Shown here: positions 12,178 through 37,642 of the stretch, one piece after another
Layout: the number at the start of each line of letters is the position of its first letter
How positions within the stretch are numbered: the first letter of the stretch is position 1
Origin: a virus
IMG/VR virus record: IMGVR_UViG_3300029787_004704
Location: 32,001 to 96,000 of that record
Direction: 5' to 3' (one strand)
DNA length: 64,000 nucleotides
Position numbers and translations under genes: made by a program
Notes under the pieces: model-generated
What the model was told of the DNA's origin: nothing
What the model saw: the letters and a program-made list of their open reading frames with translations, nothing else
Databases searched by the model: none

Positions 12178-12810
12178 CTATATATAGAAGTTTCTGTTGG
12201 ACGTTAATGATTCTTGATTGTTCACTTTGACTGCTCTTGGAGTCACCACTTGTATGTTACAGTATAGATCTTTCACAAACATGTCAGCGGCAGTCAGACC
12301 TTCTTCATATGCTCCACGTATTAACCGTTCAGCAGTTTTTGGTTTGATTACGTATCCATAGGTGCCTTGTAATTGTTGTTGTCCTTTGCGATAATGTTCT
12401 AGTTTTTGTATGCTAGGTTCTTGTCCTAGATCAGGATCAGGCTCGACAAATCGGTGTTTGTCCAAATGTAGTAGTTCATCAAACGGTGTTTTGTATGAGT
12501 CTGATACCACAATAGAATCGTGTTCAAGTATGACCACTGTTTCATCTAGTTCAACACATTTTTTCCACATTTCCAAATGTGAAATCATGCATCCTCTGAC
12601 ACCACCTTTATTCCATTTTATTTTGTATAACTTTGGCCCGGGAAAATATGGTTGTAAATTTTCTCGTTTGATATATTCATCTGCACGTGAAGGTGTGTAC
12701 CCTTCAAACATCTCAGCGTCTAGGCCATGTGCTTTAGCACTGACCATTGCGTCAATAGCTGGTTGATGTGTGCTTTCAACTTCTCTTAAAAATAATACAA
12801 ACGCTTTCAT
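12178..12810 (-). CDS. GT25-like glycosyltransferase
   Basis: GCMISHLEMW, VILEHD, GTYGYVIKP..A..L, AAD. Confidence 0.8.
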   Translation of the reverse strand: MKAFVLFLREVESTHQPAIDAMVSAKAHGLDAEMFEGYTPSRADEYIKRENLQPYFPGPKLYKIKWNKGGVRGCMISHLEMWKKCVELDETVVILEHDSIVVSDSYKTPFDELLHLDKHRFVEPDPDLGQEPSIQKLEHYRKGQQQLQGTYGYVIKPKTAERLIRGAYEEGLTAADMFVKDLYCNIQVVTPRAVKVNNQESLTSNRNFYI

Positions 12811-13220
12811 TTTTTGATAACGGACCCATGTACTCTTACTCTTATGTGGCCGTTGTAGTAATCATCTGATTCAAGTACACCTCTAGCAAACTGTTCTTTT
12901 GCTTCAAGATAATTGCATTCGCCTTTAGATTTGCATAGATGAATTATTTCTCTTTTGAATTTTTCTTTGCCTAGTTTGTTTACATCTTCGATCAGCAAGT
13001 CACTCGAACCATAATAATCTTGCCAGTCACTTTCTACTGTGTGTCTGCGTTTATTTTTTCTGCCTTTGAGAGGTGGTCTTGACCTTTTGAATTTTGCCAA
13101 TTTCTTCCCCACGTACATTCTACCTGTTGTGGTGTTGGTTATGAGATATACAAATCCCACTACACCGTCTGGTAATGTTTCTACTAGTTCTCCTTGATAT
13201 GTCCAATTGACTTTTGTCAT
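12807..13220 (-). CDS. GIY-YIG-like nuclease domain protein
   Basis: GFVYLITN...MYVGKK...YYGSS...REI...LE...YYN. Confidence 0.75.
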   Translation of the reverse strand: MTKVNWTYQGELVETLPDGVVGFVYLITNTTTGRMYVGKKLAKFKRSRPPLKGRKNKRRHTVESDWQDYYGSSDLLIEDVNKLGKEKFKREIIHLCKSKGECNYLEAKEQFARGVLESDDYYNGHIRVRVHGSVIKK

Positions 13221-13242
13221 GCTTTATTTTATTATATACTAT

Positions 13243-13776
13243 ATGCATGATGCCACACAACCAGTAATCGATAGTATTCTCCAGTGGATGGAAAAGTTTG
13301 TAGAAGTACCACATCCATCATTTGGTAACATGCCTCCATGTCCTTATGCACGGCAATACCGAGTGCAAGACAAGATTAAAATTGTTGAAGCACCGGTCAA
13401 TACCAAAGGCAATCCGCCCGATATTTGGGAGACTGCTGAACAAGTGTTTGAAACATGGAACGATGACTTTGAAGCCATCATTGTGGCACGTGAAAACGTG
13501 GCCCGTCGATATAATAGTGCAGAAATGTTATCGGCTCGAATAAAAGAATTAAATGACAAATACAAATCAAACGATTTAGTGGCCCTGGAAGATCATCCAA
13601 TGGATCCCGAAGTGATTGACGGCGTACAAATGAACCATGGCGGTTTAATTCTTGTTGTAATACAACGTTTGAGCAAGATAAACAAACACTCAGAGATGCT
13701 CAAAGGTGGAGAATACTACGATAAATGGTCGCAAGAAAATTTGGATGATGTTGTAAATTGGCGGTTTAAGAAATAG
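13243..13776 (+). CDS. DUF1415-like protein
   Basis: W...FVE....PPCPYAR, EDHP, ..QRLSKI; probable start MHDATQ. Confidence 0.55.
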   Translation: MHDATQPVIDSILQWMEKFVEVPHPSFGNMPPCPYARQYRVQDKIKIVEAPVNTKGNPPDIWETAEQVFETWNDDFEAIIVARENVARRYNSAEMLSARIKELNDKYKSNDLVALEDHPMDPEVIDGVQMNHGGLILVVIQRLSKINKHSEMLKGGEYYDKWSQENLDDVVNWRFKK

Positions 13777-13954
13777 ACCTCAATGCTTCTAATTTGTCCA
13801 TAGCTGTTGCTAATACATCCAATTTCTTTTCAGCAGTGGCAACATAATCAATATGTTCTGCAACACCTATCTGCTTTTCTAAAAAAATATTAAGATCTGC
13901 TTTGGCAACTTCTATATCACCTTCTAGTTTTTTTATCAATGCTTGTTTAATCAT
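13766..13954 (-). CDS. small helical hypothetical protein
   Basis: 62 aa, strong AAGGAG SD. Confidence 0.75.
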   Translation of the reverse strand: MIKQALIKKLEGDIEVAKADLNIFLEKQIGVAEHIDYVATAEKKLDVLATAMDKLEALRSIS

Positions 13955-14001
13955 TTTATCTCCTTTTTGCTATTGCATACTATTTGCAATACGTTATTCA
14001 T

Positions 14002-14030
14002 AAGAAAAGGAAACACAAGGTTTCCTTCTT
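14002..14030 (-). terminator. hairpin or intrinsic terminator downstream of the ATE-like gene
   Basis: Minus strand AAGGAAAC-CTTGT-GTTTCCTT followed by T-rich tract. Confidence 0.45.
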
Positions 14031-14043
14031 ACTGCTACTTATA

Positions 14044-14721
14044 TTAGAATGTTATCTTAAAGTCAATATCTTTTTGTATTGCCGAATTGTATGCATCTTT
14101 ATCATCACTCCACCCTGATCCAGTCCACCATTCAAATCCAGGAATGGATGCTTTCCATTTGCATGACTTGTCGTAACTGGCTCCTAGATAGAACCATTCA
14201 TAACCTAGTTCATGTGCATGATGTATTTCGTGCCACAGACTGTATTTGCCCAGTTGCAGTTTGAAGTCAGCATAGTTCCACGCCATTTGCCAGTTGTCTA
14301 GACTGTTGATATACGTGGTCCATATGGAGAATCCTATAAGATCATTTTTCAATCTGTACAACCACACAGTGTCTGCATGACCAATATCCTCCAGTGGGTT
14401 TGGTTCCAACATGGTGTAACCGTGATGATCAAGATATGCTTCATATATCGGCATCAATTGAGGCATCATTAATTTTGCTTCTAGACCATAAATTTTTTCA
14501 GCAATTATGTCAGGATCAGTTTTTGGTTTCTTTGCTTTTTTTATAAATCTGTCTATGTTGATTCTAACAGCACGAACTTGTTGCCATGCATCTTCTAATT
14601 GTATAAAACCTTGTGCCAATGCTTCGTCTGATTCTTGGGGGTGTACGTCTGCCCACACTTTCATGAACTGTATGTCTTGTTGATCTAGTTTGCCAAATAA
14701 ATGTTCATACCAAATTTTCAT
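14044..14721 (-). CDS. ATE/Bpt-like aminoacyl-tRNA:protein transferase (GNAT fold)
   Basis: C-terminal LGKYSLWHEIHHAHELGYEWFYLG..Y....KWKA matches the ATE_C signature (SLGxxxxLxxIxxAxxxGxxxxYLGY...YK); N-terminal ALAQGF; probable start MKIWYEH. Confidence 0.7.
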   Translation of the reverse strand: MKIWYEHLFGKLDQQDIQFMKVWADVHPQESDEALAQGFIQLEDAWQQVRAVRINIDRFIKKAKKPKTDPDIIAEKIYGLEAKLMMPQLMPIYEAYLDHHGYTMLEPNPLEDIGHADTVWLYRLKNDLIGFSIWTTYINSLDNWQMAWNYADFKLQLGKYSLWHEIHHAHELGYEWFYLGASYDKSCKWKASIPGFEWWTGSGWSDDKDAYNSAIQKDIDFKITF

Positions 14722-14738
14722 GTGTAAGTATCCTGTAT

Positions 14739-15086
14739 ATGGATATCTATCACATTTTTGCAGATCATCACCCTGAAGTGGATTCTTATGAATTCGCTGA
14801 CAAGATGAGATCATTTTTAGATGGCATGGTGAGTTTAGGAAAAATGCAAAATTACAGATTAACCAGAGCCAAACTAGGCTTCCGTTCTATGGACCTTCCA
14901 GAGTTTCATGTCATGATGGAATTTGTAAACATGCAACAACTGGATGATGCTATGACTTCTGTGTTACGCAACGAAAAAAGTATTGATGAAAAACATGTCA
15001 ACTTCAATCAATTGGTTGATAGTGAAACCATACAACATTTTCTATATAGAGACTTTCCGGATCAGATCGACGACAGCAAATCTTAG
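14739..15086 (+). CDS. DUF6614-like protein (probable dimeric alpha/beta barrel)
   Basis: MDIYHI, RLTRAKLGF, EFHVMME, QLDDA, LYRDFPD motifs. Confidence 0.6.
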   Translation: MDIYHIFADHHPEVDSYEFADKMRSFLDGMVSLGKMQNYRLTRAKLGFRSMDLPEFHVMMEFVNMQQLDDAMTSVLRNEKSIDEKHVNFNQLVDSETIQHFLYRDFPDQIDDSKS

Positions 15087-15103
15087 GTCGGTATAATATA
15101 GTT

Positions 15104-15432
15104 GTGCAAGGCAATCAAGGCACTTCAAAAAAATCTTAGGCAACATAACGTCTCCGAACACAGCGAACTACTCTGTAACAACAGCGGCGAATCGCTTGAC
15201 GTCCAATATTCATACGGTATCTACGTTTACCACCGCGTAGTATAAAAAAAGCGAGACCATAGGTTGGTATAATCCTCCGTTGCAACAATGTCTCTGGATG
15301 CTTGGCTGTGCGACTCACATCAAGAAAAACATTCACCTGGCAACAGGTGGATACTGACTTAACAATCTACATCAAGCAACGGCATTATAAAATGCTCGAG
15401 TGCAAACGAAGAGCGATTGACGTAGTCAATCT
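15104..15432 (+). ncRNA. putative structured non-coding RNA or replication-origin element
   Basis: Long, GC-enriched intergenic stretch with no credible ORF; TATAAT at 15092-15097; about 8 stem-loops including ATTCACCTG-GCAA-CAGGTGGAT and GATTGAC-GTA-GTCAATC. Confidence 0.55.
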
Positions 15433-15660
15433 TTACTTGTTGTCCACTTTGTGAGCATCATAGTCATGCATGAAATCATTTAATGTTATGTCCGCACGTC
15501 TTAGATCAGTGTGTTTTTCAAAAAAGTCAAACAGCAAATTAGCACACTCTTTGGGAGAATGTGTCATCAGCATCTTTTGTAGGACGTAGTTGGTTTTGTT
15601 TCTGCGTTGTTCAGTGTTCAACACCGCATGTTTGGGAACAGGAGCAAAGTTGTTCTTCAT
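15433..15660 (-). CDS. hypothetical protein
   Basis: 75 aa ORF. Confidence 0.6.
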   Translation of the reverse strand: MKNNFAPVPKHAVLNTEQRRNKTNYVLQKMLMTHSPKECANLLFDFFEKHTDLRRADITLNDFMHDYDAHKVDNK

Positions 15661-16151: not shown

Positions 16152-16388
16152 TTATAGTAAAGGCAGTTTAGTGTTCTTTGTGTTCTCTATGTTCTGTTTT
16201 ACAAGTTCAGCCATCATGGATCTGTCTTCAGGCCCTAGCAAAAATGCTGTGTTGTAATCCAACGACCCACGCATGTACCAACACAATTTAATAAGTTCAT
16301 CCTTTAAATTTTTGTTTGTGTTTTCAAGTTCTTTAAAATATTCTTCAAGTTCAGAAGGCGAGAGAGTTAGGATCTTGATACGAAAAAA
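16152..16388 (-). CDS. gp51-like baseplate/tail assembly domain, probably reached by -1 frameshift from the upstream gene
   Basis: Open frame FFRIKILTLSPSELEEYFKELENTNKNLKDELIKLCWYMRGSLDYNTAFLLGPEDRSMMAELVKQNIENTKNTKLPLL* with no start before its second half. Confidence 0.6.
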   Translation of the reverse strand, partial: FFRIKILTLSPSELEEYFKELENTNKNLKDELIKLCWYMRGSLDYNTAFLLGPEDRSMMAELVKQNIENTKNTKLPLL

Positions 16389-17230
16389 TTGGAGTTATCC
16401 ATTGATATAGGAGCGTCAAACGACGCTGGAGCACCTTTTTCTATTTGTTCCTTTGTTGGTGTAATAGTAATAGGTTTAATTCTGCCTAAATCTTTTTGTA
16501 CATCTAATCTTTTTTTAATTTTGTCGGCAGTGGCACCATCCATGTTGTCCACAAATTCTTCAATGTAAACACGATCAGTGATAGTTTGTCCATCAGCTGT
16601 GACCTCCAAAATAGATTCTTTCATGTTAGCCAAAGTTAAGTTGGTCATATGGCCAAATATTTCAGCAAATTTTTCCTGTTTTTGTGATGCATTTAATTCA
16701 TTGGTATCAATGACTTGTGTTATAATTCTTTGTTGTTCAAAGGTGCGTAATTGTAAGTTTGTGAGTTGACGATAACTCATTGGCTTTATTTTGAAAGACA
16801 CTTTGTCTGCAGGCACATATCCATCAAATGGTGTCTTGTCAATTTTATCTCCTGCTGTACGCAAATCAACATTGTAGACTACTTTGTCTTCTGTGTTGGG
16901 AATAGTCACATTGATATCCATCATGTGGCCATAAGTTGCAATACGTATAGCAATCATTATGGAGTCTAAATCTAACACCGGCATCATCCATGGATCTTTG
17001 ATTCCTGGCACACATGAACGTATGACATTTATTGTTGATTCTCCGTTTAACAGTGCGTCTGGTGTATTCATGGTCATTTCATCTTTAGCAGTCATAGGAT
17101 ATACTGCAAGTTCTTTTTCGTTGTCAAATACTAAAGCTCCTTCAGGATACCAATCACCATTAGATGGCAGAGTTGTGTATATTGCTGGTTGCCTAAAGAA
17201 CTTTGCTAAAGGGTTTTGTGAAGTTGTCAT
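16367..17230 (-). CDS. gp26-like baseplate hub / tail assembly chaperone
   Basis: NPLAKFFRQP...LPSNG...VYPMTAKDE...PDALLNG...IAIRIATYG; C-terminal NFF. Confidence 0.8.
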   Translation of the reverse strand: MTTSQNPLAKFFRQPAIYTTLPSNGDWYPEGALVFDNEKELAVYPMTAKDEMTMNTPDALLNGESTINVIRSCVPGIKDPWMMPVLDLDSIMIAIRIATYGHMMDINVTIPNTEDKVVYNVDLRTAGDKIDKTPFDGYVPADKVSFKIKPMSYRQLTNLQLRTFEQQRIITQVIDTNELNASQKQEKFAEIFGHMTNLTLANMKESILEVTADGQTITDRVYIEEFVDNMDGATADKIKKRLDVQKDLGRIKPITITPTKEQIEKGAPASFDAPISMDNSNFFVSRS

Positions 17231-17243
17231 AATTTATAGTCCA

Positions 17244-17268
17244 TAAATACTTACTATAACAATATTTA
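17244..17268. promoter_or_regulatory. crossed divergent T4-type late promoters
   Basis: TAAATA at 17244-17249 (+) and TAAATA on the minus strand at 17263-17268. Confidence 0.55.
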
Positions 17269-28594: not shown

Positions 28595-31500
28595 ATGACC
28601 AAACAACGTATTCAAATAGGTGCTATTAACTCTGGATCCGGCGATACCTTAAGAGCCGCGATGATAAAAATCAATAACAACTTTGATGAGTTGTATGATT
28701 TACAGGGACAAGACTCTAGTGGTCAGGGCATTGATATAAATGGAAACACAATCACATCAAATTTTGAAGACACTGACATAACATTATCACCAAACGGCAC
28801 AGGTGACATTGTAATGGATGGTGATCTTGTTGTTACTGTTATAAAATCAGATGATTCTACAGAAGTTAAAATAAGTGATTCATTGAACGTCACAGGCACA
28901 GTGACAGCAACAGCATTTGTTGGTGATGGATCAGGACTTACAGGAGTAAGTGGTAGTGGTGGTGGCGGCGGTGACTCTACAGAAGTTTACACAAATATTT
29001 TAAGATCAAATGACTCCACTGCTATCCAAGTTGCAGACAATTTAGTACCAACAGCAGATGACACTTTCAGTTTAGGTACAGCAGACAAAAAATGGTCAGC
29101 AGTGCATGTTTCCGGAGGCACTATATTCTTAGGAAACTTACAGATCAAAGATTCAGGATCAAATTCATTACAAATTTTAAGGTCAGACGGGTCTACTACG
29201 GCGGCAGTTGAATCTACAAGCACAACATTGAATGTTGTAGGTGATGACTCCACTGACATGGAAATTGTAGTTGGCACAGATAGATTACATTTCCAAGGTG
29301 GCACAAACATTGAAACATCCACAGACAGTGGTGCACAACTTACAATATCTACAAGTAACACTCCAACATTCAGTGGCACAGTCACAGCAGGTGGATTAAC
29401 AATTGGATCAGCAGTAATTAATGAAGCAGAACTAGAAACTATTGATGGTGTCACAGCAGGCACTGTGGCAGCTTCCAAAGCAGTGATTGTTGATGCCAAC
29501 AAAGACGCGGCATCATTTAGAAACATTACTGCCACTGGTGCAGTAACAGGTGGCTCTTTTGTAATTGGATCTGCAGACATTAGTGAAGCAGATCTAGAAA
29601 AACTAGATGGAATAACAAATGGAACTGCCGCGGCAAATAAAGCAATAGTAGCTGATGGCAACATTGATGTTACTGCAATTAGAAATCTTACACTAACAGG
29701 AAACATACAGGTTGGTGGCGACATGACTGTGAGTGGCACAACTACATCAGTCAACACAACAAATTTAGAAATATCAGATGCACTATTAGAACTAAACAAA
29801 AATAACTCAGGTGGTGCAGATACTGATGCTGGACTATTAATACAAAGAGGATCTGCAGGCAACAATGCCGCGTTTTATTGGAATGAAGGTGCTGACAAAT
29901 TCAAAGCAGTATTAACCACATCGGCAGCCACAGCAAGTGCAGTCACTGACTCAAGCACAGCAACCATTGTTGCAAATCTTGAAGGAGCAGTAACAGGCAA
30001 TGCCGACACAGCAACAGCTTTAGCCACAGCAAGGAATATTGGTGGTGTTAGTTTTGACGGTACTGGAAATATAAATTTACCTGGTGTAAACACTGCCGGT
30101 GACCAAGACACAAGTGGAACTGCCGCAATAGCAACTAAGATTATAGTAACTGATAACGAAAGTACAAATGAAAATAATGTAATTTTGTTTGCGTCTAGCG
30201 TAGGTGATTCGAGTACTGCAAGTGGAAGTGGCGTAGAATCTGATGGTAACATGACATACAATCCCAGCACAGGCAAAATCACTGCTACTGGATTTATAGG
30301 TGCTGTAACTGGTGATGTTACAGGTGATGTTACAGGTAATGCCGACACAGCAACAGCTTTAGCCACAGCAAGAACAATAGGTGGTGTGTCATTTGATGGC
30401 ACAGGAAATATTAACTTGCCAGGAGTTAACACTGCTGGTAACCAAAATACAAGTGGAACAGCCGCGATAGCAACCCTTGTAACAGTAACTGACAACGAAA
30501 ACACAAATGAAGAAAATGTTGTTACATTCGTTGCTGGTGCAGATGCAGATGGTGGCAATGTTGGCCTTGAGTCAGATGGAAACTTTACATATAATCCAAG
30601 CACAGGGGCAGTAACAGCAACAAAATTCAAAGGTGATGGATCAGAACTTACTGGAATAAGCGGTGGTGGTGGATCAAGCACATTGAACGTTGTTGGTGAT
30701 GATTCAACTGACATGGAAATTACGCTTGGAACAGATAGATTATATTTCCAAGGTGGCACAAATATTTCAACGTCAACAGACAGTGGGGCACAACTAACAA
30801 TTACTGTTGCTGATGCTCCAACATTTAGTGGTGCAGTCACTGCCGCTGGATTTACAATAGGCAGTGCCGCTATTAACGAATCGGAACTTGAAACAATTGA
30901 TGGTGTCACAGCAGGTACTGTGGCCGCAAGTAAAGCTGTCGTAGTTGACTCGAACAAAGATGCAACAGGATTTAGAAACGTTACAGGCACAGGAGATGTC
31001 GAAGGTGCAAGTTTAACTGTTACAAGTGGCGTTGCCATTACAGCATCAAGTGGCGATGTTACTGTTGCGAATGCAACATCAAATAAAGATTTAATATTCA
31101 CAGTAAATGATGGTGGCTCTGCTACTGAGGTAATGAGATTAGATGGTGATGTGTCAGCATTATTAGTGGCGTCTGGGAAAGAATTGAGATTTGCAGACTC
31201 CGGAGAAAAAATATCAGGTGACGGCACTGACTTAACCATTGCATCAGGAGCCAAAATAAACCTAACAGCAACATCGGATGTTGTTGTTCCAGCTAACGTA
31301 GGAATTACATTTGGCACTGGCGAAAAAATTGAAGGCGACAACACAGACTTAACTATTACTTCAGGTGCTAAAATTAATTTGGCAGCTACTTCAGATGTAC
31401 ATATTCCAAATGATGTTGGTATTGTGTTTGGTGGAGATTCAGAAAAAATTGAAGGAGATGGAACGGACTTAGTCATATCTGCAAATAATTTAACAGTTGA

Positions 31501-34500
31501 CGCGGCCGCTGATATAATTTTAGACGCAGGTGGCAATGACTTCCAATTCAAAGCAGGTGGCACTCACATATTAAGCATTGTGAATTCATCTAGTGATGTC
31601 ATAATCAAACCTATCGCTGATGCAAAAGATATAATATTGCAACAAAGAGATGGCACAGAAGTTGCTCGCGTTGAAGACAACGGAACATTCAATATTGTCA
31701 CAGACAAATTAGCAATAAATGGCACAGCGGTTACATCAACTGCCGCAGAGTTAAATTTTGTTGATGGCAGTACAGCAGGCACTGTGGTGGCATCTAAAGC
31801 AGTGGTTGTCGATTCAAACAAAGATGCTGGAGACTTCCGTAACTTAACTGGAGTAACTTTAAAAGGAACAACTTCATTACAAACACCATTGATTGAATTC
31901 ACTGATGGCGACAATGCAATTACTATTGCAAATGGAGGTGGTATTACTGCTAATACAAGTTTAACATTGGCAAGTGGTGCAACTGTTACAGCAATACTTG
32001 ATGAAGATAATTTTGCATCAGATTCTGACACTGCATTGGCAACACAACAATCAATCAAAGCATACGTTGGATCACAAACAGGATCATCAATCAGTATGAG
32101 AGTTGCTGGTTCATCAGATTCAACACAGGCAAACATTGATTTATCAAGCAATGAAGAATTCAGATTAATTGGTGGCAACAGTATTACAACAACCATAGGT
32201 AGCACTGCTGACAACACAATGACTGTGGCACTGGATGATAATATTGCAATAGATGAACTCAGTGCTAAAGATTCATCGAATATCCAAATTAAATCACCTA
32301 TACTTGCTGACAGTACAATAACTTCAGGAGCAATCACATCTTCAGGTGTTGTCACAGCAACTGGATTTACTATTGGATCTGCCGCAATAAATGAAACAGA
32401 ACTAGAAACTATCGATGGCATCACAGCAGGTACAGTTGCCGCGTCGAAGGCGGTCATTGTAGATTCAAATAAAGATGTTACTGGTTTTAGAAATGTTACC
32501 GGCACAGGTGATGTTGAAGGTGCAAGTTTAACAGTTTCAAGTGGTGTGGCAATAACTGCATCAAGCGGTGATGTCACAGTTGCTAACGCAACTTCAGACA
32601 AAGATTTAATATTCACGGTTAATGATGGTGGCTCGGCTACTGAAGTGTTTAGACTTGATGGTGATGTATCAGCTATGTTGATAGCATCAGGAAAAGAATT
32701 AAGATTTGCTGACTCAGGAGAAAAAATATCAAGTGATGGTACAGACTTAACTATCGCATCCGGTGCCAAAATTAATCTAGGAGCAACATCAGATGTTCAT
32801 TTAGCCAACGATATTGGATTGGTGTTTGGTGATGCTGGTGAAAAAATTGAAGGTGATGGTACGGACTTAACCATTACAGGTAACAATATTAAATTGACTG
32901 CCACAGCAGATGTAGTGATACCGGCCAACGTTGGAATCACGTTTGGTACAGGAGAAAAAATTGAAGGTGACAGCACAGACTTAACTGTGACTTCAGGTGG
33001 GAAGATAAATTTAACAGCAACATCAGATGTTCATATTCCAAATGATGTTGGTATTGTGTTTGGTGATGCGGCAGAAAAAATTGAAGGTGACGGAACAGAC
33101 TTAACCATAACAGGAAACAATATTAAATTAACTGCCGCGGCTGATATTGTTGTGCCGGCTAATGTTGGAATTACATTTGGCACCGGCGAGAAAATTGAAG
33201 GCGATAGTACAGATTTAACTGTCACATCCGGAGCAAAAATTAATCTTAATGCAACTTCTGATATTCACATTCCAAATGATGTTGGTATTGTATTTGGTGG
33301 CGCATCGGAAAAAATTGAAGGTGATGGCACAGACCTAGTCATATCAGCAAACAACTTGACTGTAGATGCCGCGGCCGACATAATACTTGATGCAGGTGGC
33401 AATGACTTCCAATTTAAAGCAGGCGGAACGCATATATTAAGTGTAGTGAATTCGTCAAGTGACGTAATAATTAAACCAATTGCTGACGCAAAAGATATCA
33501 TATTCCAACAAAGAGATGGCACAGAAGTTGCAAGGGTAGAAGATAATGCAACATTCAATGTTGTAACTGGTAAACTGGCAATTAATGGCACAGCAATTAC
33601 ATCAACGGCCGCTGAACTTAACCTAGTTGACGGCATCACAGCAGGAACAGTATCTGCCAGTAAGGCAGTAATTGCTGACTCTAATAAAGATGCATTAGGA
33701 TTTAGAAATATTTCAGCAACGGGTACCGCTGAGATAGGCGGTGATTTACAAGTTGGCGGAAACTTCACAGTATCTGGAACAACTACATCAGTTAATACAA
33801 CCAACATAGAAATCCAAGACGCATTGTTAGAATTAAACAAAAATAACTCAGGTGGTGCTGATGTTGATGCTGGAATATTCATACAACGTGGTTCGGCAGG
33901 TAACAATGCAGTATTATATTGGAATGAAGGAGATGACACATTTAAAGCAGTGTTGTCCAACTCAGTTGCAACTGCTGACGCAGTAACAGATTCGTCTTTT
34001 GCAGGATTAGAAGTAGGATCGCTCACTGTAAACGCTGGAGTGGCAATCACAGCATCGAGTGGTGATGTTACTGTTGCTAATGCAACATCAAATAAAGATT
34101 TAATATTCACTGTAAATGATGGTGGTTCAGCAACAGAAGTAATGAGACTAGATGGAGATGTATCGGCTATACTAGTTGCATCAGGAAAAGAATTAAGATT
34201 TGCTGACTCAGGAGAAAAAATATCAGGTGATGGTACAGACTTAACCATTGCATCAGGGGCTAAAATTAATTTATCAGCAACTTCAGATGTTGTTATACCA
34301 GCAAACGTAGGAATAACATTTGGTGATGGTGAAAAAATTGAAGGTGATGACACAAACATTACAGTCACTTCAGGTGGCGCAATCAACTTAACTGCAACAA
34401 CAGATGTTGTTGTACCTGCCAATGTTGGAATTACATTTGGTACAGGTGAAAAGATTGAAGGCGACAACACAGACTTAACTGTGACTTCAGGTGCTAAAAT

Positions 34501-37500
34501 TGTATTAGCGGCAACAAGTGATGTTGAAATACCAGCAAATGTAGGAATAACATTTGGTACAGGAGAAAAAATTGAAGGTGACAATACAGACTTAACTATC
34601 ACGTCGGGTGCTGACATAACCTTGGCGGCAACAGCAGATGTTAACATACCAGTCAATGTTGGCCTACGTCTAGGTGATGGTGGTGAGAATATCGAAACAG
34701 ATAACACAGATTTAACAATTACTTCAGGTGGAAAAATTAATTTAGCAACTGCTTCAGATGTACACTTAGCCAACGATAAAGGAATAGTGTTTGGTGATGC
34801 CGGTGAGAAAATTGAAGGTGATGGCACCGACTTAACTATATCGTCAAGTGCAAAATTAAATTTAACAGCATCATCAGATGTACACATTCCAAAAAACATA
34901 GGATTAGTTTTTGATGATAATGCTAGTGAAAAAATTGAATCAGATGATACAGATTTAACTATTGCATCAGGTGCCAAAATTAATTTAAATGCAACTTCAG
35001 ATGTTCACATTCCAAATGATGTAGGAATAGTATTTGGCGGTGCTTCTGAAAAAATTGAAGGTGATGGAACTGACTTAGTCATATCAGCTAACAACTTGAC
35101 TGTTGATGCGGCAGCTGATATTATACTTGACGCTGGTGGCAATGACCTTCAATTTAAAGCAGGTGGCACACATGTCTTGAGTATTACAAATTCATCCAGT
35201 GATGTTATCATTAAACCAATTGTAGATGCAAAAGATATTATATTCCAGCAAAGAGATGGAACAGAGGTTGCTCGTATTGAAGACAATGCAACATTTAATG
35301 TTGTCACAGGCAAGTTAGCAATCAATGGCACAGCAATTACATCAACTGCCGCTGAACTAAATGCACTAGATGGCATTACTGCTGTTGTTGGTGAACTTAA
35401 TGCTCTGGATATAGGTAGTACCGCTGTTGGAACTGCTGTTGCATCTAAGGCAGTGATACTAGATTCAAATAAAGATTATACTGGCATAAGAAACTTAACT
35501 ACAACTGGTTCATTCATAATTGGTAATGCGGACATGAATGAAACTGATCTAGAAAAACTAGATGGTATCACAAACGGAACTGTGGCAGCTAACAAAGCAG
35601 TTGTTGTTGATGGTGACAAAGACGCTGGTTCATTTAGAAATATTACAGCAACAGGTACAGTAACCACAGCAATACTGGATGTAAACTCAATTAAATCAAC
35701 TGATTCATCTAACATACGTATTGATGAAGGCCTTGATGTAGTAGGTGGATTATTCCTTTCAGAAATAAATTCAATAGATTCAAGTGCAATTGAAGTAAAT
35801 GAAGTTACTAATTTCAATGCAAACGTAGTTGTCAAAGCAGATGTAACAACAACTGGTTCATTTATTATTGGCTCAGCGTCAATGAATGAAACTGATTTAG
35901 AAAAATTAGATGGCATTACAAATGGTGCTGGTGCGGCAAACAAAGCATTGGTGTTAGATGGAAGTGCTGATGTGGCATCTGGCTTAAGAAACTTAACAGC
36001 AAGTGGCACTATTACAGGTGGCACAATCACATTAGATGGAGGATTTTCGGCAACAGAATCAAGTGGTGATGTCACAGTTGCTAATGCAACATCAAACAAA
36101 GATTTAATATTCACTGTAAACGACGGTGGCTCTGCTACTGAAGTGTTTAGACTTGATGGTGATGTGTCAGCACTACTAGTTGCGTCTGGGAAAGAATTGA
36201 GATTTGCTGATTCAGGCGAAAAAATATCAGGTGATGGCACAGATTTAACTATTGCATCAGGAGCCAAAATTAATTTAACTGCCACTTCAGATGTTGTTGT
36301 ACCAGCAAACGTAGGAATAACATTTGGTACAGGTGAGAAGATTGAAGGTGATAACACTGATCTTACAATAACATCAGGTGCAAAAATTAATTTAGCCGCA
36401 ACATCAGATGTTCACATTCCAAATGATGTTGGTATTGTGTTTGGTGGTGATTCAGAAAAGATCGAAGGTGATGGCACTGACTTAGTCATATCAGCAAATA
36501 ACCTCACAGTGGATGCCGCGGCTGACATTATACTTGATGCCGGTGGCAATGACTTCCAATTCAAAGCAGGCGGCACTCACATATTAAGTGTAGTAAACTC
36601 ATCCAGTGATGTTATTATTAAACCAATTGTAGATGCAAAAGATATTATATTCCAACAGAGAGATGGAACAGAAGTTGCTCGTGTAGAAGACAATGGTACG
36701 TTCAATGTTGTTACCAGCAAGTTAGCAATAAACGGTACAGCAATTACTTCAACGGCCGCTGAACTAAATGCACTAGATGGCATTACTGCTGTTGTTGGCG
36801 AACTTAATGCACTAGACCTTGGCAGCACAGCAGTTGGAACTGCTATTGCATCCAAAGCTGTTATTTTAGATTCAAACAAAGATTATACTGGGTTAAGAAA
36901 CGTCACACTATCAGGTGAACTTGATGCAGGAAGTTTAGATATATCAGGTGATGCTGACATAGACGGTACTTTAGAAACAGACGCATTAACAATTGGCGGC
37001 ACTGCTATCGCAGATGTAATTGCAGGAACCACAGTCAACCTTGCCACACTAGCGTCAACTGTCACTATTACAGACAACGAATCAACCAATGAAAACAATG
37101 CTTTAGTCTTTACTGCCGGCGGCGATACAGATGGTGGTAACCTTGGATTAGAATCAGATGGTACATGTACATACAATCCAAGCACAGGTAAAATAACTGC
37201 CACAGGATTTGTAGGTGACTTAACAGGAACGGCATCTGCCGCTCAATACTCTGACTTGGCAGAACGTTATCATGCTGATGCTGTGATGGAAAAAGGTGAC
37301 ATTGTTGAGATAGGTGGCGAAAATGAAATTACTAAGTCTACACAAGCAGTAAGTCCAGATGTGTTTGGTGTAATATCTCATGAGGATCAAGCGGCATTTA
37401 AAATGAATGACGGACTTCCTGATGATACTCACCCACTAGTGGCACTAACTGGAAGAGCAGATGTAAAAGTGATAGGACCAATCAACAAAGGCGACAGACT

Positions 37501-37642
37501 TGTCACATCATCTACACCAGGCGTTGCACGTAAGGCATTGATGTCTGAATGCACAGCATTTACAGTAATTGGTAGAGCGTTACAAGATAAAACAACAGAA
37601 GATATTAGCGTTGTTTTATGTTATGTGAACGCAAAATCTTAA
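28595..37642 (+). CDS. giant repeat-rich tail fibre with a C-terminal chaperone/peptidase-G2-like domain
   Basis: N-terminal GDTLRAAMIKINNNFDELY (baseplate-attachment motif); about 20 KIEGD..DLTI units; C-terminal AQYSDLAERY...VALTGR..VKV.G.I.KGD.LVTS. Confidence 0.8.
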   Translation: MTKQRIQIGAINSGSGDTLRAAMIKINNNFDELYDLQGQDSSGQGIDINGNTITSNFEDTDITLSPNGTGDIVMDGDLVVTVIKSDDSTEVKISDSLNVTGTVTATAFVGDGSGLTGVSGSGGGGGDSTEVYTNILRSNDSTAIQVADNLVPTADDTFSLGTADKKWSAVHVSGGTIFLGNLQIKDSGSNSLQILRSDGSTTAAVESTSTTLNVVGDDSTDMEIVVGTDRLHFQGGTNIETSTDSGAQLTISTSNTPTFSGTVTAGGLTIGSAVINEAELETIDGVTAGTVAASKAVIVDANKDAASFRNITATGAVTGGSFVIGSADISEADLEKLDGITNGTAAANKAIVADGNIDVTAIRNLTLTGNIQVGGDMTVSGTTTSVNTTNLEISDALLELNKNNSGGADTDAGLLIQRGSAGNNAAFYWNEGADKFKAVLTTSAATASAVTDSSTATIVANLEGAVTGNADTATALATARNIGGVSFDGTGNINLPGVNTAGDQDTSGTAAIATKIIVTDNESTNENNVILFASSVGDSSTASGSGVESDGNMTYNPSTGKITATGFIGAVTGDVTGDVTGNADTATALATARTIGGVSFDGTGNINLPGVNTAGNQNTSGTAAIATLVTVTDNENTNEENVVTFVAGADADGGNVGLESDGNFTYNPSTGAVTATKFKGDGSELTGISGGGGSSTLNVVGDDSTDMEITLGTDRLYFQGGTNISTSTDSGAQLTITVADAPTFSGAVTAAGFTIGSAAINESELETIDGVTAGTVAASKAVVVDSNKDATGFRNVTGTGDVEGASLTVTSGVAITASSGDVTVANATSNKDLIFTVNDGGSATEVMRLDGDVSALLVASGKELRFADSGEKISGDGTDLTIASGAKINLTATSDVVVPANVGITFGTGEKIEGDNTDLTITSGAKINLAATSDVHIPNDVGIVFGGDSEKIEGDGTDLVISANNLTVDAAADIILDAGGNDFQFKAGGTHILSIVNSSSDVIIKPIADAKDIILQQRDGTEVARVEDNGTFNIVTDKLAINGTAVTSTAAELNFVDGSTAGTVVASKAVVVDSNKDAGDFRNLTGVTLKGTTSLQTPLIEFTDGDNAITIANGGGITANTSLTLASGATVTAILDEDNFASDSDTALATQQSIKAYVGSQTGSSISMRVAGSSDSTQANIDLSSNEEFRLIGGNSITTTIGSTADNTMTVALDDNIAIDELSAKDSSNIQIKSPILADSTITSGAITSSGVVTATGFTIGSAAINETELETIDGITAGTVAASKAVIVDSNKDVTGFRNVTGTGDVEGASLTVSSGVAITASSGDVTVANATSDKDLIFTVNDGGSATEVFRLDGDVSAMLIASGKELRFADSGEKISSDGTDLTIASGAKINLGATSDVHLANDIGLVFGDAGEKIEGDGTDLTITGNNIKLTATADVVIPANVGITFGTGEKIEGDSTDLTVTSGGKINLTATSDVHIPNDVGIVFGDAAEKIEGDGTDLTITGNNIKLTAAADIVVPANVGITFGTGEKIEGDSTDLTVTSGAKINLNATSDIHIPNDVGIVFGGASEKIEGDGTDLVISANNLTVDAAADIILDAGGNDFQFKAGGTHILSVVNSSSDVIIKPIADAKDIIFQQRDGTEVARVEDNATFNVVTGKLAINGTAITSTAAELNLVDGITAGTVSASKAVIADSNKDALGFRNISATGTAEIGGDLQVGGNFTVSGTTTSVNTTNIEIQDALLELNKNNSGGADVDAGIFIQRGSAGNNAVLYWNEGDDTFKAVLSNSVATADAVTDSSFAGLEVGSLTVNAGVAITASSGDVTVANATSNKDLIFTVNDGGSATEVMRLDGDVSAILVASGKELRFADSGEKISGDGTDLTIASGAKINLSATSDVVIPANVGITFGDGEKIEGDDTNITVTSGGAINLTATTDVVVPANVGITFGTGEKIEGDNTDLTVTSGAKIVLAATSDVEIPANVGITFGTGEKIEGDNTDLTITSGADITLAATADVNIPVNVGLRLGDGGENIETDNTDLTITSGGKINLATASDVHLANDKGIVFGDAGEKIEGDGTDLTISSSAKLNLTASSDVHIPKNIGLVFDDNASEKIESDDTDLTIASGAKINLNATSDVHIPNDVGIVFGGASEKIEGDGTDLVISANNLTVDAAADIILDAGGNDLQFKAGGTHVLSITNSSSDVIIKPIVDAKDIIFQQRDGTEVARIEDNATFNVVTGKLAINGTAITSTAAELNALDGITAVVGELNALDIGSTAVGTAVASKAVILDSNKDYTGIRNLTTTGSFIIGNADMNETDLEKLDGITNGTVAANKAVVVDGDKDAGSFRNITATGTVTTAILDVNSIKSTDSSNIRIDEGLDVVGGLFLSEINSIDSSAIEVNEVTNFNANVVVKADVTTTGSFIIGSASMNETDLEKLDGITNGAGAANKALVLDGSADVASGLRNLTASGTITGGTITLDGGFSATESSGDVTVANATSNKDLIFTVNDGGSATEVFRLDGDVSALLVASGKELRFADSGEKISGDGTDLTIASGAKINLTATSDVVVPANVGITFGTGEKIEGDNTDLTITSGAKINLAATSDVHIPNDVGIVFGGDSEKIEGDGTDLVISANNLTVDAAADIILDAGGNDFQFKAGGTHILSVVNSSSDVIIKPIVDAKDIIFQQRDGTEVARVEDNGTFNVVTSKLAINGTAITSTAAELNALDGITAVVGELNALDLGSTAVGTAIASKAVILDSNKDYTGLRNVTLSGELDAGSLDISGDADIDGTLETDALTIGGTAIADVIAGTTVNLATLASTVTITDNESTNENNALVFTAGGDTDGGNLGLESDGTCTYNPSTGKITATGFVGDLTGTASAAQYSDLAERYHADAVMEKGDIVEIGGENEITKSTQAVSPDVFGVISHEDQAAFKMNDGLPDDTHPLVALTGRADVKVIGPINKGDRLVTSSTPGVARKALMSECTAFTVIGRALQDKTTEDISVVLCYVNAKS
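31030..36780 (+). repeat. four nested super-repeats within the giant fibre gene
   Basis: Each starts SSGDVTVANATS.KDLIFTVNDGG, holds 3, 6, 8 and 3 units of about 39 aa, and ends DAGGND.QFKAGGTH...QQRDGTEVAR. Confidence 0.85.

Follow-up and report, generated by a model that had tools for sequence, protein, structure and literature searches.

A predicted structured RNA family outside Rfam in uncultured jumbo T4-like phages, upstream of the gp26 module

Positions 15104-15432 (plus strand) of the window, by which we mean the whole stretch of 64,000 nt of phage DNA that was analysed, almost certainly form a stand-alone structured non-coding RNA gene of an undescribed family. The family is found neither in Rfam nor in any other catalogue that we searched; judging by the contigs on which it occurs, its carriers are a clade of uncultured jumbo T4-like phages, which have it upstream of the gp26 module. 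The initial annotation of this DNA had proposed a novel structured non-coding RNA here, and the comparison bears this out: many related phages share the element, compensatory changes preserve its helices, no ORF accounts for it and it belongs to no Rfam family. What the RNA does we infer from its parts and setting. The reading that we favour, with about as much doubt as confidence, is that the RNA acts in trans as an RNA or RNP scaffold, with short AGGC repeats and a duplicated word, X, as recognition sites.

Locus and parts of the RNA gene

The window stems from an IMG/VR virus record of 107,868 nt with a completeness of 26% (CheckV), which at this length implies a jumbo phage. T4-type portal, Gp23 capsid, terminase and tail genes are present in the record. 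Its capsid protein shares 65-69% identity with the jumbo myophages Phosso, Vibrio phage 2.275.O, PA5oct and XaC1, and its baseplate hub about 28-30% identity with Atu_ph07, Phosso, GAP32 and PA5oct. The window is thus a fragment of a jumbo T4-like phage. Inside the structural gene block, an ORF of 3015 aa runs without interruption on the plus strand (28595-37642). The RNA element sits between convergent protein genes, and a divergent strand switch lies near 17250. No tRNA or tmRNA gene was detected in the 64-kb window (ARAGORN). The features of the locus are as follows.

12807-13220, minus strand: stand-alone GIY-YIG gene, upstream of the RNA element
14739-15086, plus strand: DUF6614 gene, immediate upstream neighbour of the RNA element
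15070-15097, plus strand: sigma-70-like promoter (-35 at 15070-75, 16-nt spacer, -10 TATAAT at 15092-97), a consensus match only (10/12)
near 15104, plus strand: transcription start as predicted from the promoter consensus match
15104-15147, plus strand: A-rich single-stranded leader with three AGGC copies (15109-12, 15118-21 and 15138-41)
15148-15202, plus strand: 5' domain of three nested helices, P1, P2 and P3, by covariation
15148-52/15198-202, plus strand: P1 (ACGTC/GACGT), by covariation
15162-66/15192-96, plus strand: P2, by covariation
15173-76/15181-84 plus 15171/15186, plus strand: P3, by covariation
15167-70 and 15187-91, plus strand: near-invariant internal loop of the 5' domain
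15221-15240, plus strand: P4 hairpin (15221-25/15236-40), with a counterpart of different sequence in the sister subclade
15253-15299, plus strand: reduced central domain with helix 15253-57/15290-94; the closing helix has a different sequence in the sister subclade
15272-75 with 15296-99, plus strand: tentative 4-bp pseudoknot, proposed by analogy with a covarying pseudoknot of larger clades
15301-15324, plus strand: module 1, in which segment Y (15301-10) pairs with X copy 1 (15317-24) around the loop 15311-15
15331-15352, plus strand: 9-bp hairpin with a GCAA (GNRA) tetraloop between the two modules, by covariation
15353-15376, plus strand: module 2, with conserved GACU and AUCUA stretches followed by X copy 2 (15369-76)
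15394-15414, plus strand: hairpin with a tandem G-A internal loop, a 2-bp stem and a GCAA tetraloop, by covariation
15415-15431, plus strand: terminal 7-bp hairpin with a GNA triloop, followed by a T-rich tail; a terminator-like match
15433-15660, minus strand: gene of a 75-aa protein, convergent neighbour downstream of the RNA element
downstream of the RNA element, with the hub gene: gene of a 146-aa protein
16367-17230, minus strand: baseplate-hub gene gp26, downstream of the RNA element

Several observations of the initial annotation recur in this list. The TATAAT is the -10 part of the promoter-like match, and the pairings ACGTC/GACGT (P1), CTACG/CGTAG (P4) and GAGAC/GTCTC (15253-57/15290-94), the hairpins at 15301-24 and 15331-52, the triloop hairpin at 15415-31 and the 8-nt repeat at 15317 and 15369 are all present. 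The element was also described as GC-richer than its flanks, and its GC content is indeed 0.40-0.435 compared to 0.35-0.385 on either side. As to coding capacity, the longest ORFs in the element have 47 and 50 aa on the plus strand and 66 aa on the minus strand; none of them is conserved, and no ORF keeps its frame between the clades compared, in agreement with the earlier statement that a credible ORF is lacking.

Promoter-like matches of up to 11/12 recur at a constant distance upstream of the RNA core in most clades, and the promoter-like and terminator-like sites both have the correct orientation. The terminal hairpin abuts the stop codon of the convergent 75-aa gene and is the probable 3' end or terminator of the predicted transcript. 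The 75-aa protein itself had no PDB sequence match of note (best E 0.044) and was assigned to no family; its protein-atlas matches were weak and unnamed, with a score of 0.78 against a lead threshold of 0.9.

Distribution and gene neighbourhood

Relatives were first recruited by searching IMG/VR contigs with the two flanking proteins. Two short patterns from invariant stretches of the RNA then gave 19 and 42 IMG/VR stretches, about 49 contigs overall. In metagenomes the 3' pattern was found in 72 stretches, 8 of them chance-like, and about 64 metagenome contigs were recovered. These RNAs fall into at least six clades and measure 335-450 nt overall, the window's clade being the short one at about 335 nt and the others having 410-450 nt. 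The window's RNA recurs with 99% identity in one contig and with about 72% nucleotide identity in the sister subclade. In one clade, where the identity of the 75-aa protein is down to 38-40%, both ends of the RNA are still conserved. Of 13 loci with long flanks, 11 have the hub gene downstream of the RNA.

Beyond uncultured phages the family is nearly absent from the collections searched. In 596 Gb of prokaryote genomes (GTDB), the 5' pattern with its 19 fixed bases had 18 matches, compared to roughly 22 estimated by chance. Seventeen of these were rejected, being without the flanking helices of the family; most of them lie in GC-rich, apparently coding sequence. The sole true member is locus L083 (JBMOJS010000364.1, 2059 nt), a contig binned in a Pseudobdellovibrionaceae MAG; the RNA there is probably no bacterial gene but belongs to phage DNA that was binned with the MAG. 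Among GenBank phages, no similar DNA was found for the window's RNA, for its 6-kb surroundings or for two other clade representatives. A covariance model of the 5' domain (R1) had no match in the jumbo relatives Atu_ph07, PA5oct, Vibrio phage 2.275.O, Phosso and XaC1, nor in Melnitz-3. Just past the hub gene, PA5oct (L088, 6540-7204) and Atu_ph07 (L087, 5843-6951) have stretches that are gene-poor or hold tiny hypothetical ORFs; the same model had no match in them. The four ncRNAs of PA5oct that were defined by RNA-seq map elsewhere in its genome (PMC7318152). In the literature, the family is undescribed in PMC2864571, in PMC10690425, in 2026 bioRxiv preprints and in what keyword searches returned; fragments of it are possibly contained in the supplementary catalogue of PMC10690425, which comprises short IMG/VR candidate RNAs.

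The genes around the RNA are less constant than the RNA itself: flanking genes swap between clades and the RNA stays. A GIY-YIG gene is divergent from the RNA gene in 39 loci, and this layout is probably the ancestral arrangement. The flanking GIY-YIG proteins have 137 aa, belong to PF19835, consist of the catalytic domain only and occur in one to three copies (window 12807-13220; L041, L045, L046, L050, L065). The best GenBank relative is from the Methylophilales phage Melnitz-3, with 59% identity. Many cyanophage homologues of this protein carry the annotation 'NAD synthetase'.

A second neighbour is a three-gene cassette that encodes a DUF6875/DUF1415-like protein of 189 aa, an ATE_C/Acetyltransf_6-like (FemAB-like) GNAT protein of 256 aa and a DUF6614 protein of 115 aa. 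It lies upstream of the RNA in the window's clade (13207-15086) and in the sister clade, downstream in part of another clade (L043, L049, L054, L061, L063, L064 and L066), and it is absent from the other clades. The adjacency of cassette and RNA may reflect a functional link, or the flanks of the RNA may be insertion hot spots for cargo carried by homing endonucleases. The duplication of AAATCTTAGG that the initial annotation had pointed out, a 10-nt direct repeat (15078-15087 and 15130-15139), extends over the stop codon of DUF6614 and over the third AGGC motif. Only the closest relatives of the window share it, and it may be the scar of a cassette insertion.

This neighbourhood bears on the idea of a cis-acting untranslated region, in which the element would be a long 3' UTR or terminator region of the convergent flanking genes, or else the leader of the ATE_C-like gene. 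The element does abut the stop codons of both neighbours, and in the downstream cassettes of the seven loci of one clade the ATE_C-like GNAT gene is co-directional and begins about 30 nt past the RNA. However, the RNA persists where its flanking genes change and has its own promoter-like site at a constant distance, and in both the window's clade and the sister clade a convergent gene lies downstream, which leaves no cis target to regulate there. We regard a cis-acting role as highly improbable overall, although the RNA may serve as a leader in the seven loci with the ATE_C-like gene.

Covariation and the folded strand

Folding energy alone is weak evidence, and hence the case for structure rests on covariation. 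The initial annotation had looked to both. The predicted fold of the plus strand (-83.9 kcal/mol, z = -1.78) is better than most shuffles, with 3 of 100 equally good, and in this respect adds little; the minus strand is no better than shuffles (z = +0.18). Covariation in relatives, in contrast, was found in the 5' domain, in the 3' hairpins and in the centre of the larger clades.

In the 5' domain, the three nested helices are 99.4% paired in 33 sequences. When 51 distinct sequences were aligned to the covariance model, 99.7% of the cells were paired compared to 84.8% in shuffles. Seven of the 15 pairs are changed on both sides, one of them occurring as all four Watson-Crick types; the covariation score is 0.443 versus 0.140, and none of 500 shuffles was as good. 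Slid controls reached at most 46% paired. Sequences recruited with the 3' pattern, and hence unselected for the 5' domain, fit it equally well. Two hairpins that had been drawn inside P1 (ACAG/CTGT and AGCGG-CGAA-TCGCT) give way to P2 and P3, which covariation favours. A reading of the domain as a T-arm, or as the AGCGG-CGAA-TCGCT hairpin, was rejected because it fails in clades with a changed P2.

In 16 sequences, pairing is complete (100%) throughout the 3' part, which comprises the GNRA, tandem G-A and terminal hairpins, and in five pairs both partners have changed. Three pairs of the GNRA hairpin (15331-52) are changed on both sides in one alignment (A3), and other clades have a 9-bp helix with 10 extra pair types. 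In the hairpin at 15394-15414, pairs at both levels covary (UA/CG and CG/UA), and its equivalent in other clades has a different stem sequence. This helix overlaps the pairing GCATT/AATGC (15382-95) of the initial annotation, which is deleted in L122 and L145 and was dropped. The terminal stem is invariant in two clades, with a varying middle loop base; in other clades, covariation is seen in its upper 4 bp, and the GNA triloop is confined to two clades. The module 1 hairpin is present in the MFE fold and is kept in the sister subclade via changed bases, including U-G to C-G.

The centre differs most between clades. In the larger clades, it contains an 11-bp helix whose loop pairs with a strand further downstream as a 7-bp pseudoknot. 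A 4-bp hairpin encloses a second pseudoknot, and there is a mini-hairpin with a UACG or GNRA loop. Over 36 sequences this centre is 95.1% paired, 22 of 32 pairs are changed on both sides, and in five of five measures it beats all 500 shuffles. At the position of P4, the sister subclade has a hairpin with an internal G-C to A-U change in L128, and clades other than these two have a GGAG/CUCC hairpin. The shorter centre of the window's clade (15203-15299) retains one hairpin and a closing helix, possibly along with 4 bp left over from the pseudoknot; the central-domain model for this clade draws on two sequence types only and hence has weak support. As predicted from this comparison, the window's RNA is a reduced variant that is without most of the pseudoknotted centre of other clades. 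The loss of the core in this variant means either that a function shared by all clades is independent of the core, or that the window's RNA works differently.

Is the folded molecule RNA, and which strand is it? G-U cells are frequent on the plus strand (for example, in 24 of 36 sequences at one pair), and C-A cells, which would signal folding of the minus strand, are nearly absent. GNRA and UACG loops occur on the plus strand only. The G-U pairs together with the GNRA and UNCG loops indicate that the plus strand is the folded one and that the molecule is RNA.

These signatures weigh against a replication origin, which the initial annotation had raised as its alternative in the form of a transcript-primed origin with DNA hairpins. 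Here, a promoter-driven transcript would prime the leading strand, as in T4 oriF/oriG and ColE1, the AGGC repeats would be iterons and the hairpins would form in single-stranded DNA. Several features are in line with such a reading: the promoter-like site (a consensus match), direct repeats that contain AGGC, with a spacing of 9-11 bp and an A-rich run after them, and a fixed position near the divergent strand switch at about 17250. T4 oriF adjoins genes 25 and 26, which also counts for it. The likeness to T4 oriF/oriG and to ColE1 RNA II extends to a non-coding transcript at a fixed intergenic site, with a promoter that is here a consensus match, and ColE1 RNA II is likewise structured and several hundred nucleotides long. 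However, the GC skew of the plus strand is -0.075 to -0.106 over 15000-15400 (about -0.1 over 15100-15400), so that the transcript is C-rich rather than G-rich, the opposite of an RNA prone to R-loops, and it lacks a G-rich stretch that would form a hybrid. The helices keep the RNA signatures, and the GNA triloop, which had been taken as a DNA hairpin type, is confined to two clades. The distance between AGGC copies differs from clade to clade, and one copy falls within the folded part. A DNA unwinding element would have no use for pseudoknots or an invariant internal loop, and covarying helices occupy the region where an RNA-DNA hybrid would form. An origin is thus very unlikely.

The element matches no RNA family searched, in line with the initial annotation, which had recognized no tRNA, tmRNA, RNase P, hammerhead or group I core in it: ARAGORN found neither tRNA nor tmRNA, and none of the 4227 covariance models of Rfam 15 reached its gathering threshold in the whole window or in nine other RNA-bearing loci. 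At E up to 10, only chance matches of snoRNA type appeared, outside or across the element. Models for ribozymes, riboswitches, T-box and Csr/Rsm RNAs had no match. The central core was also considered as RNase P J11/12 with CR-IV, and this was rejected since there is neither a P4 sequence nor an Rfam match.

In most clades, stretches of invariant unpaired bases accompany two covarying pseudoknots. A pseudoknotted fold might position invariant unpaired nucleotides for self-cleavage, ligation or some other catalysis, or for binding of a small molecule, and a ribozyme or ligand-binding RNA is the main rival to a scaffold, although a fairly unlikely one. It would be in line with the near-invariant internal loop of the 5' domain and with the GNRA loops, which are typical of tertiary contacts. 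Against it, the ribozyme and riboswitch models of Rfam gave no match even at E up to 10, the window's clade has lost the best conserved core but retains the rest, there is no downstream gene to regulate in the window's clade and in the sister clade, and a hypervariable duplicated X is unexpected for a catalytic core.

AGGC repeats, the X element and a possible function in trans

Two short sequence elements stand out from the folded body. In 63 distinct RNAs, AGGC occurs 2.7 times per 56-nt leader compared to 0.22 expected, an enrichment of about 12x, and 0.68 times per 30-nt linker after P1; it is under-represented in the remainder of the RNA. There are 2-4 copies in the leader and 2-6 per RNA. 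The complement GCCU occurs 0.08 times per RNA. The near absence of GCCU, together with the enrichment of AGGC in an unpaired leader, indicates that AGGC is kept free of internal partners. The arrangement resembles the CsrB/RsmZ sponges, which display several unpaired copies of a short motif, with the complement avoided within the present RNA. However, those RNAs present GGA in hairpin loops, whereas AGGC lies in linkers, in 2-6 copies, next to a large folded body.

The second element, X, is a word of 7-10 nt. The RNA comprises two similar modules, each of them a conserved stretch with X after it; the GNRA hairpin lies between the two copies, which are 50-60 nt apart. Both copies are identical in each RNA and diverge between clades, such that 14 distinct repeated words were found; in the window, X is the 8-mer at 15317-24 and 15369-76. 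Each copy is a possible partner of the segment 15301-10 in the window's clade, and the two conformers, with conserved helices enforced, have -74.0 and -72.0 kcal/mol. The switch that the initial annotation had suggested for this segment is compatible with the small difference of 2 kcal/mol and with the identity of the X copies across clades. An internal partner for X was found only in the window's clade; in other clades candidates do not covary, and X copy 1 lies in a hairpin loop. Complementary sites for X were looked for within 4-10 kb of the RNA, and none is recurrent.

A trans-acting scaffold is favoured because a cis target is absent in most clades, AGGC is spared internal pairing and the X copies are held identical. 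It seems plausible that the host polymerase would transcribe the RNA early in infection and that the RNA would then act in trans as a folded scaffold. The exposed AGGC repeats could be recognition sites for an outside protein, and the two identical X elements could be recognized by a nucleic acid or by a sequence-specific protein. In the window's clade, 15301-10 might either mask X copy 1 or pair with copy 2, providing an on/off switch.

X would also suit a template RNA, on which a polymerase or reverse transcriptase jumps between the X copies, as in DRT2, or on which X delimits a short cDNA, as in UG27 arrays. Identical words 50-60 nt apart around a stable hairpin, matching within each RNA and diverging between clades, are what such a template would show, and DRT2 and the phage-borne UG27 likewise have a structured ncRNA with short repeated motifs flanking a hairpin (bioRxiv 10.64898/2026.09.22.753630). 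However, the present RNA is single and no array of units of about 150 nt, the unit length varies (50, 52, 55 and 56-60 nt) and keeps no reading frame, and no reverse transcriptase is among the conserved neighbours. PF00078 (reverse transcriptase) is also absent from the 107,868-nt record, which is weak evidence as the record covers about 26% of the genome. A template function is extremely improbable.

Barely probable, too, is a new RNA-guided system, in which the X pair would be programmable guides, the RNA would direct a phage protein such as the GIY-YIG nuclease to a matching sequence, and 15301-10 would be an anti-guide switch in the window's clade. Unlike the guides of IscB and TnpB (omega RNA, HEARO), the RNA has no RuvC-type nuclease next to it, its neighbours being GIY-YIG, DUF6614, the 75-aa protein and the hub, and it has no match among the Rfam models.

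For a scaffold that presents X to one partner, the nearest likeness of the duplicated word may be found in RNAs of the S. aureus RNAIII type, long structured RNAs with their own promoter (here a predicted one) that show the same short sequence repeatedly. The repeated seeds of RNAIII are C-rich, invariant and aimed at Shine-Dalgarno sequences. In contrast, X has 7-10 nt and is clade-variable, no target was found for it, and the RNAs are not homologous. By analogy, such repetition of an identical seed is what one would expect where one target has to be matched by both copies. The identity of X within each RNA and its divergence between clades point to a specific outside partner and offer a handle for experiments.

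As a whole, the RNA is reminiscent of GOLLD and ROOL in that it is large, phage-encoded, stand-alone, pseudoknotted, known from metagenomes and without an assigned function. It differs from them in having no match to an Rfam model and in its smaller size (335-450 nt), and GOLLD and ROOL are often found near tRNA genes, whereas the present window has none. To our knowledge, large, intricately folded and strongly covarying RNAs are rare, and nearly all known classes are a ribozyme, a riboswitch or the core of an RNP. Here, an RNA of 335-450 nt with several pseudoknots keeps a fixed genome position across a whole phage clade behind an apparent early-type promoter. With a covariance model of the family, phage annotations could be corrected where they now have a gap or spurious small ORFs at this position.

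Some X words also recur outside the RNA. In L043, L049, L063 and L064, the same strand carries three further copies of the clade's X word 0.7-0.9 kb downstream of the RNA, at about +1130 to +1346 from its core, and in L057 it recurs once, at +1131 from the core. As these contigs are closely related, the recurrences may be due to chance.
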